DNA of 14,811 nucleotides from a virus (IMGVR_UViG_2548877010_000018); one strand, 5' to 3'. Positions 11,628 to 13,310 are shown, counted from the first letter of the stretch. Notes: generated from the letters alone by a model not told the origin. A program made the numbers and translations.

Positions 11628-11849
11628 ATGGCAGATATCATTGATTCAGCATCAGAAATTGAAGAATTACAGCGCAATACAGCAATAAAAATGCGTCGCC
11701 TGAACTACCAGACTGTATCCGCAACTCATTGTTGTGAGTGTGGCGATCCGATAGATGAACGAAGACGCCTGGCAGTTCAGGGTTGTCGGACTTGTGCAAG
11801 TTGCCAGGAGGATCTGGAGCTTATCAGTAAACAGAGAGGTTCGAAGTGA
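11628..11849 (+). CDS. DksA/TraR-family C4 zinc-finger protein
   Basis: 73-aa ORF with C-x2-C-x17-C-x2-C (CCEC...CASC) near the C-terminus, the DksA/TraR zinc-finger arrangement. Confidence 0.7.
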   Translation: MADIIDSASEIEELQRNTAIKMRRLNYQTVSATHCCECGDPIDERRRLAVQGCRTCASCQEDLELISKQRGSK

Positions 11850-12793
11850 GCGAAATTAATTATCAGGCACTGCGTGAAAAGGCAGAAAAAGCAACTAAAG
11901 GAAGCTACATCGTAGGGCATACATCTGTTAACCAGCACGGCAATTTAACAGGAGTTTTTGTTTGCCAAAAATGGAAAGGAGAACCCGGTGGCGTGATTGC
12001 GGAATGTCATGTTAACTGCCTGATTGAATCAGATGCTCAGGCTTATGCAAACGCTGAATTCATAGCAGAGGCTAACCCGGCTACCGTGCTGGAACTGCTG
12101 GATGAACGGGAAAGAAACCAGCAATACATCAAACGCCGCGACCAGGAGAACGAGGGGATTGCGCTTACGGTTGGGAAGCTGCGTGTTGAGCTTGAAGCAG
12201 CAAAATCAAAACTCAACGAGCAGCGTGAATATTACGAGGGAGTAATCGCGGATGGAAGTAAGCGCATAGCAGAACTGGAAAAACAATGCGCCGAATGGGA
12301 GCGAAAAGCATTAAGCAACTTTGAAGAGTGTGCTGCGATGGCTGAACGTATCGAAGAGATGCAGACAAAATCTGCACCAGATTCGTTTGGCATCATCGGT
12401 GAAAATATTCGAACACAGGACAATCGAATAACGTCAGATCCCATGTTTTGTGTGTATCAAAAGCGCGAAATCGCTGTTGATGCTGATTATGACCATGACC
12501 GGATTGTCTGGGTTGACGAAGATGGCAATGAAGCCAATAAACGCCATAGTCGTCGTCTCGAGCTACTTCATGAAAACTTTCGAGAGCCACCAGAAAAATG
12601 GCGGCGCGTTGCTGTGAAAGATATTGATGAATTCGTTACCTGCTGTTTCACCGAACAGGGTTGTAAAGACTACCTGGCAGTCAATGGTCACAATCTTCGC
12701 TTGCCATTTATATATGTAAAAAGCGGTTTCAGGAACGCTGAATATATCGGCATAAGAAACTGGCTTGCTGGCATTCGCATCAAAGGAGAGTGA
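11846..12793 (+). CDS. Ea22-like (Ead/Ea22 family) protein with coiled-coil and an unassigned C-terminal domain
   Basis: 315-aa ORF, GTG start with SD agagagg. N-terminal half (PATVLELLDERERNQQYIKRRDQENEGIALTVGKLRVELE...) resembles prophage Ea22-family proteins as recalled; C-terminal ~140 aa unrecognised. Confidence 0.65.
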   Translation: MSEINYQALREKAEKATKGSYIVGHTSVNQHGNLTGVFVCQKWKGEPGGVIAECHVNCLIESDAQAYANAEFIAEANPATVLELLDERERNQQYIKRRDQENEGIALTVGKLRVELEAAKSKLNEQREYYEGVIADGSKRIAELEKQCAEWERKALSNFEECAAMAERIEEMQTKSAPDSFGIIGENIRTQDNRITSDPMFCVYQKREIAVDADYDHDRIVWVDEDGNEANKRHSRRLELLHENFREPPEKWRRVAVKDIDEFVTCCFTEQGCKDYLAVNGHNLRLPFIYVKSGFRNAEYIGIRNWLAGIRIKGE

Positions 12794-12794
12794 T

Positions 12795-13310
12795 ATGGCG
12801 TTAACACACCGCGAACTCTGTCAGATTGCGTACAAGTTCCTTAAGCGCAACGGTTTCAAGGTTTGTTTTCATGACCGCTTTATAGCTGTAACCAGTACCG
12901 GAGAACAGCCAGATGCTATGGGATTCAGAAATTCAGCATCATGCCTGATAGAGGCGAAATGTTCTCGTGCTGACTTGTTGGCAGATAGAAAAAAGCGTTT
13001 TCGTAAAAATCCGTCTCTTGGAATGGGCGACTGGCGATTCTTTATTAGTGAGCCGGGAATTATTTCAATTGAGGATTTACCACCTGGCTGGGGATTACTT
13101 CACGTTGTTAACGGAAGAGTACGGAAAGTACATGGGTGGCCCAAGGGTAATTGCTGTTGGGGTAATCCTGACGATAAGCCATTTACTGGAAATAAGCAGG
13201 TTGAATGCGATTACATGTTGTCTGCATTAAGGCGCATGGAGTTGAGAGGGCACCTTAATGAAATATATGACGGTGTAATTGTTAATAAGAAAGAAGGAAA
13301 CGCGGCATGA
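12795..13310 (+). CDS. Hypothetical protein with PD-(D/E)xK nuclease-like motif
   Basis: ATG 12795 with SD aaggagag 5 nt upstream (track ORF begins earlier at 12765). Contains ...GEQPDAMGF...SCLIEAKCS..., a PD...ExK arrangement with ~13-aa spacing. Confidence 0.5.
   Translation: MALTHRELCQIAYKFLKRNGFKVCFHDRFIAVTSTGEQPDAMGFRNSASCLIEAKCSRADLLADRKKRFRKNPSLGMGDWRFFISEPGIISIEDLPPGWGLLHVVNGRVRKVHGWPKGNCCWGNPDDKPFTGNKQVECDYMLSALRRMELRGHLNEIYDGVIVNKKEGNAA

Follow-up and report, generated by a model that had tools for sequence, protein, structure and literature searches.

Introduction

Ea22 proteins have an N-terminal segment and a coiled coil in common and carry C-terminal domains that are unrelated between variants; full-length Ea22 of lambda and of phage P27 forms tetramers, deletion of ea22 moves development toward lysis, and the protein is reported to be pro-lysogenic (PMC10834534, PMC7093339). 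Representatives from Shiga toxin (Stx) phages were described by Goddard et al. (2024) as prototypes of "Ea22 variant V3", a variant listed for P27, 1717, 2851, F349 and the WGPS phages (PMC10834534), and a "+GE motif of unknown significance" has been noted in all Ea22 proteins (PMC7093339). Among repair nucleases, MmcB of Caulobacter is an SOS-regulated endonuclease required for mitomycin C and cisplatin resistance (PMC9578287). Here we give an account of two adjacent genes, an ea22 gene (ORF1) and a small gene predicted to encode a PD-(D/E)xK nuclease (ORF2), in the viral DNA IMGVR_UViG_2548877010_000018, a stretch of 14,811 nucleotides (nt) that we call the window.

The two open reading frames (ORFs) lie on the forward strand (+), ORF1 at 11846..12793 (315 amino acids, aa) and ORF2 at 12795..13310 (171 aa). 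They are probably two independent cassette genes, ORF1 encoding Ea22 variant V3 and ORF2 a predicted stand-alone PD-(D/E)xK DNA endonuclease. ORF1 is already known; the ORF2 family is new and widespread within a well-known superfamily, large, unnamed, without a Pfam model and annotated everywhere as "hypothetical". DNA damage induces Stx phages and thereby drives the release of Shiga toxin; ORF2 lies in their early operon, and an MmcB-type function in repair or branch processing, if it has one, could alter phage yield when induction is by mitomycin C or oxidants. We also set aside the reading of the two genes as a pair, which is tempting but in our view wrong, and give a simple answer to the puzzle posed in the literature by the Ea22 (K/R)GE tail, namely that it holds the ribosome-binding site of the next gene within a common cassette junction.

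ORF2: gene structure, predicted fold and active site

ORF2 begins with the ATG at 12795, directly preceded by AAAGGAGA, and its stop codon ends at 13310; the TGA of ORF1 lies 1 nt upstream of the ATG. This start was preferred over a TTG at 12765 because ORF2 homologues begin with the same M-x-LTH. A preliminary description of the window, made from its sequence alone, had pointed to the strings QPDAMGF and CLIEAK in the 12795-13310 gene and had suggested that they were compatible with a PD-(D/E)xK nuclease fold. Both strings are present in the 171-aa product, at aa 38-44 and aa 50-55, and the predicted active-site codons span 12903..12959 (+), with E37 at 12903-12905, D40 at 12912-12914, E53 at 12951-12953 and K55 at 12957-12959. 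Among 47 full-length members of the family, 35-54% identical to ORF2, D40 is invariant (47/47), and E37, E53 and K55 are each kept in 46, the sole deviant at all three being one protein (P0272) that looks degenerate. Further conserved positions are D60, D64, K67, R70, G78, R81, E137, R146 and R147. Judging from these alignments, the motif is not a product of chance.

An alignment-based AlphaFold2 model of ORF2 is reasonably confident (predicted local distance difference test, pLDDT, 80.5; predicted template modelling score, pTM, 0.77). It contains a helix at 5-18, strands at 22-25, 41-45 and 48-54, a helix at 58-64 and a strand at 80-85, which together make the classic alpha-beta-beta-beta-alpha-beta core of the PD-(D/E)xK superfamily; D40 opens strand 2 and E53/K55 close strand 3, as expected for a D...(D/E)xK motif. 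A Foldseek search of the model against BFVD returned a number of phage proteins annotated as "MmcB-like/MmcB family DNA repair protein" (E 5e-7 to 9e-5), and the top PDB sequence match of a profile built from ORF2 homologues was 3dnx, with an E value of 0.14 that is not significant alone and an alignment that lands exactly on the G..D...IExKxSRxDFxAD.K motif. The predicted PD-(D/E)xK fold and active site can be held with high confidence, and both the fold and the motif conservation bear out what the preliminary description had suggested. Of the two outcomes that it had named as fatal to this reading, a structure lacking the restriction-endonuclease-like fold and motif residues that vary among homologues, neither was seen.

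Direct family assignment gave nothing significant for ORF2 in Pfam, NCBIfam, PADLOC and PDB sequence searches, and in PHROG it matches families of unknown function and, weakly, a 'DNA repair protein'. A full-library profile search nevertheless recovered 3,246 cluster representatives at E ≤ 1e-3, of which 2,442 reached E ≤ 1e-10. When the 47 relatives were scanned singly against Pfam, they gave sub-threshold matches only, to Hjc (27/47), MmcB-like (11/47), AHJR-like and UPF0102, all of which we take to be PD-(D/E)xK families; the best E values were 2.9e-4 for MmcB-like, which is below family-level significance, and 1.3e-4 for Hjc. ORF2 is best placed, from these comparisons, as a single-domain member of an unnamed PD-(D/E)xK family that is nearest to, and would be a sister of, the MmcB-like family (PF06319/DUF1052) and that stands close to the Hjc-type resolvases.

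The MmcB-like representative 3dnx is the closest solved structure and has the extended ExKxSRxDFxxDxK motif in common with ORF2. The PF06319 model itself finds no match in ORF2 at E ≤ 10, and that family is described as mostly alpha-proteobacterial and chromosomal, whereas the ORF2 family is carried by phages, phage-plasmids and conjugative elements. Caulobacter MmcB alone is known for SOS regulation and crosslink repair. As for the archaeal Holliday-junction resolvase Hjc (PF01870), its model does not match ORF2, three long relatives score 16.9-17.7 bits, under the Pfam cut-off of 21.1, and Hjc has no counterpart to the C-terminal half of ORF2 (aa ~75-150; conserved G78, R81, W99, E137, R146 and R147).

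ORF2-type domains also occur in fusion proteins (P0091, P0093 and P0104, with a short Ea22 N-terminal segment, in Salmonella; P0334, P0319 and P0256), the partners being that Ea22 segment, DUF551, a MazZ-like dATP/dGTP pyrophosphohydrolase and a TniB-like ATPase. It seems that many different fusions arise among the cassette genes of this region; the fused domains are other cassette genes and gave no clear functional hint for ORF2.

ORF1: Ea22 variant V3 and its C-terminal tail

The Ead/Ea22 domain of ORF1, comprising the N-terminal segment and the start of the coiled coil (aa 2-145; 11849..12280, +), was detected with Pfam Ead_Ea22 (PF13935) over the full profile length, at E 3.3e-41 and 141.6 bits against a gathering cut-off of 27; coiled-coil-type matches to SMC and TPR_MLP1 were weak. 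The protein is 95% identical to Ea22 of phage vB_EcoS_P27 over all 315 aa, C-terminal domain included, with 15 substitutions, mostly at aa 60-80. Like ORF1, P27 Ea22 follows the TraR-like orf73, combines the Ead/Ea22 N-terminus and coiled coil with the same C-terminal domain, and ends in KGE. ORF1 shows every sequence feature by which V3 Ea22 is recognised (Pfam score, P27-type C-terminal domain, slot after orf73, IKGE end), and by these features it is the protein already described in the literature as variant V3. The preliminary description had correctly seen a 315-aa Ea22-like protein with a coiled coil and an unrecognised stretch of ~140 aa at its end, and had overlooked that the protein is published as V3 (PMC10834534).

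Lambda Ea22 (182 aa) has the N-terminal segment, the coiled-coil region, the Pfam family, the genomic slot and the (K/R)GE tail in common with ORF1, whereas its C-terminal domain, for which a nuclear magnetic resonance structure exists (PMC10834534), is unrelated, and a 63-aa segment found in Stx Ea22 variants is missing from it.

The V3-specific C-terminal domain of ORF1 (aa ~178-315; 12377..12790, +) matches phrog_3205, a family of unknown function (E 1e-51), and the last ~140 aa are without a match in Pfam, NCBIfam, PADLOC and PDB sequences. Its alignment is shallow because no available homologue is less than 77% identical. The AlphaFold2 model is poor (pLDDT 53, pTM 0.38), and AlphaFold and ESMFold disagree on this domain in the published work (PMC10834534, PMC7093339). 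A ratio of non-synonymous to synonymous polymorphism (pN/pS) of 0.20 indicates purifying selection. The domain sits behind many different N-termini, some of them without the Ea22 N-terminal segment (Ea22-N), and behaves as a portable module. Homology between this domain and the ORF2 family was considered and ruled out (hhalign probability 0.1%).

The end of ORF1 forms a cassette junction, AAAGGAGAGTGATATG at 12782..12797 (+), in which the K-G-E codons (AAA GGA GAG) double as the AAGGAG Shine-Dalgarno sequence of ORF2 and are followed by TGA, a single t and the ORF2 ATG. In all loci examined (L001-L197), a (K/R)GE end is present in 55 distinct ORFs where 2.4 were expected, and these unrelated ORFs have the generic junction AAAGGAGAGTGAnATG in common; a Shine-Dalgarno core lies within the last four codons in 54 of the 55, and a start codon follows within 8 nt in every one, mostly as AAAGGAGAGTGA[T/G]ATG. 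A longer tail, GIRIKGE, is common to several unrelated proteins. The Ea22 (K/R)GE tail can be explained, as read from these sequences, by its codons serving as the Shine-Dalgarno sequence of a translationally coupled downstream gene, and the junction is a likely site of cassette exchange. Because many unrelated cassette genes have this junction in common, the tight spacing of ORF1 and ORF2 is not evidence of a partnership.

Distribution, selection and possible role of ORF2

ORF2 DNA occurs at 1,300 places in 931 of 5,426 complete E. coli genomes (17%); plasmids of ~48-136 kb, probably phage-plasmids and conjugative plasmids, account for 250 of these places. Relatives extend from the Enterobacterales to Shewanella, Halomonadaceae, Rhodobiaceae and Flavobacterium. 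Neighbours of ORF2 homologues are of a prophage type (Ea22, DUF551, orphan methylases, NinG, RusA, RdgC, integrase) or of a conjugation type (TraC, TraG, TraV, TraI), and no constant neighbour was found among 33 genomes. For 51 distinct intact alleles compared with the window copy, pN/pS was 0.033, a rough value, given one reference throughout and related alleles, but a clear signal that selection maintains ORF2.

Intact reading frames were present in 99 of the 115 copies examined. At least four different inactivating indels occur among otherwise ~100% identical O157 copies (L035-L053, L036, L044, L047, L058). One, the loss of 2 nt within the E53 codon, is common in O157:H7 and present in EDL933 (NZ_CP008957.1 3028780-3029293) and Xuzhou21; another is a 5-nt deletion at codons 135-136, adjoining the invariant E137; and two different single-base insertions could be assembly errors. 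The commonest lesion is one clonal O157 allele. These indels could reflect prophage decay or counter-selection of the nuclease.

Two plasmid copies (L196 3501-4016 in NZ_CP020522.1 and L197 3501-4016 in NZ_AP027521.1) are called a 179-nt 'frameshifted' pseudogene by RefSeq (PGAP). That label is wrong, the 516-nt ORF being translated without interruption, and it looks like an annotation artefact for which a truncated O157 product was perhaps the reference.

In the explanation that we propose, ORF1 and ORF2 would have become adjacent through cassette shuffling in the pL-transcribed exo-xis accessory region of an Stx-type prophage, with cassettes swapped at the conserved junction, which would also provide translational coupling. 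ORF1 joins a conserved Ead/Ea22 N-terminus and coiled coil to a variant-specific C-terminal domain. In its fold, catalytic residues, signs of selection and place in the early operon, ORF2 resembles a gene for an active nuclease, and we infer its catalysis, substrate and role as follows: the protein would be made early after infection or induction and would act as a metal-dependent DNA endonuclease with D40, E53 and K55, probably together with E37, as predicted catalytic residues, cutting damaged or branched DNA and not a specific sequence. It may thereby assist the replication or recombination of the carrier element after infection or SOS induction. We put this role forward tentatively, as the likeliest for a protein that has no recognition or sensor domain and is closest in kinship to a crosslink-repair endonuclease and to junction resolvases.

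A different role, which we regard as rather unlikely, would make ORF2 on its own an offensive or toxic nuclease directed at host or competitor DNA, in takeover, in exclusion of phages or plasmids, or in abortive infection, and not an enzyme of repair or recombination. As a small, stand-alone predicted nuclease found on prophages, phage-plasmids and conjugative elements, ORF2 would suit such a role, restriction enzymes are among the fold matches of ORF2, and the O157 indels, above all the one in the E53 codon, fit counter-selection. Yet the commonest frameshift is a single clonal allele and some of the single-base insertions are maybe assembly errors, while the large majority of copies are intact and under strong purifying selection. 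No cognate methylase, immunity gene or sensor is a constant neighbour, ORF2 is most closely related to enzymes of the repair and resolvase types, and the defence models of PADLOC-DB 2.0 gave no match at E ≤ 1 for ORF2, nor for ORF1 or its C-terminal domain.

Independent assortment of ORF1 and ORF2

The preliminary description had further presented, as speculation, the nuclease as paired with a coiled-coil partner, an arrangement of the kind seen in phage anti-defence or exclusion modules. Read in this way, ORF1 would regulate or target ORF2 within a two-gene module for anti-defence or superinfection exclusion, and the 1 nt between the two genes, their place in the accessory region of a temperate phage and the Salmonella proteins in which the nuclease domain is fused to an Ea22 N-terminal segment would all speak for it. 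The same 1-nt-spaced junction, however, joins many unrelated genes, the fusions hold just ~60 aa of Ea22-N and lack the coiled coil, and neither protein matches PADLOC.

Three co-occurrence tests speak against the pair. At 33 loci of other species with an ORF2 homologue (43-91% identity), the V3 C-terminal domain was never found within 6 kb (0/33), and an Ea22-N-like gene lay directly upstream in just three. Conversely, the V3 C-terminal domain (at least 93% identity) is present at 79 informative IMG/VR loci, of which 33 have ORF2 directly downstream, which would favour a pair, and 46 lack it, the prototype P27 among them; in P27 the slot after Ea22 is held, equally tightly, by an unrelated 168-aa gene, and at least 14 unrelated gene families occupy the slot downstream of V3 Ea22. 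At 80 IMG/VR loci with ORF2 at ≥99% identity, V3 Ea22 is upstream in only seven, and at least 15 other genes take that place, most commonly one for a 62-76-aa protein. An obligate ORF1-ORF2 module was rejected on these counts and on the different gene in the P27 slot. The pairing proposed earlier dissolves into two genes that assort independently across a generic junction; ORF2 is very probably independent of ORF1, a functional module of the two is improbable, and the anti-defence reading is likewise unsupported. As to whether ORF2 might be a catalytically inactive DNA-binding protein with a PD-(D/E)xK fold, for instance a regulator like some members of the superfamily, its activity is a prediction and the protein is small, with many conserved basic residues (K55, R58, K67, R70, R81, R146, R147), but inactive derivatives of this fold usually lose catalytic residues and 46-47 of 47 divergent relatives retain the whole acidic and lysine set, so that this is extremely unlikely.

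Several points weigh against the explanation of ORF1 and ORF2 as independent cassettes with a DNA-processing nuclease. Some Ea22-N gene lies within 1.2 kb upstream in 67 of the 80 close ORF2 loci, and a looser link of ORF2 to the Ea22 family at large is possible; these and the other IMG/VR counts refer to sequences rather than to independent events, the loci being highly redundant with many O157 isolates, and the direction of the co-occurrence is unambiguous despite this. For the nuclease, ORF2 itself has no match in Pfam even at E ≤ 10, the profile match to 3dnx does not reach significance by itself, catalysis is a prediction for every member of the family, and the proposed damaged or branched substrate is taken from the nearest relatives only. 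The frameshifted O157 copies, finally, mean that ORF2 is dispensable for lysogens, and it might even be harmful.

Genomic setting

The gene content marks the window as the early part of a lambdoid, Stx-type prophage. Its genes run in the order DnaB-like, O-like, cII, cro, cI and N, then gam, bet and exo, with small genes toward xis, so that ORF1 and ORF2 come after cI, N, gam, bet and exo and before xis. The label "early-left accessory region" given to them in the preliminary description is correct: they lie between exo and xis, and over bases 11600-13500 the identity is 99.9% with Stx2 phage 1717, 99.7% with phage 2851 and 98.4% with VT1-Sakai. The records of these three phages label ORF1 "ead/Ea22-like family protein" and ORF2 "hypothetical protein", and nothing more.

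Directly upstream of ORF1, at 11628..11849 (+), is a gene for a TraR/DksA-type C4 zinc-finger protein (Pfam zf-dskA_traR, E 1.9e-9; phrog_54 'DksA-like zinc-finger protein', E 6e-26), the equivalent of lambda orf73 and the final small gene of the conserved exo-xis block; the sequence, read directly, has its stop codon overlapping the GTG start of ORF1. The order of this block, including the position of orf73, has been described (PMC8614690). Downstream, the next cassette gene (13307..13441, +; 44 aa) has an ATG that overlaps the ORF2 stop (ATGA). Its matches to PHROG families of 90-190 aa are confined to their first ~48 positions, and it is probably a truncated cassette gene, a shortened copy of a longer family. 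About 220 nt without an ORF separate it from the DUF551 gene at 13660-14010.

An IS3-family insertion element of 1,310 bp, with terminal inverted repeats of 25 nt, occupies 9157-10466 of the window and carries orfA (10086-10412) and orfB (9199-10089) on the reverse strand (-). It interrupts the lambda-exo-like (YqaJ-domain) gene, leaving pieces at 8901-~9156 and ~10467-10894. The Red exonuclease has probably been lost in this prophage, because the element splits exo here and exo is intact in phage 1717. A second copy of the element, partial, inverted and 100% identical, lies at the start of the window (1-657).
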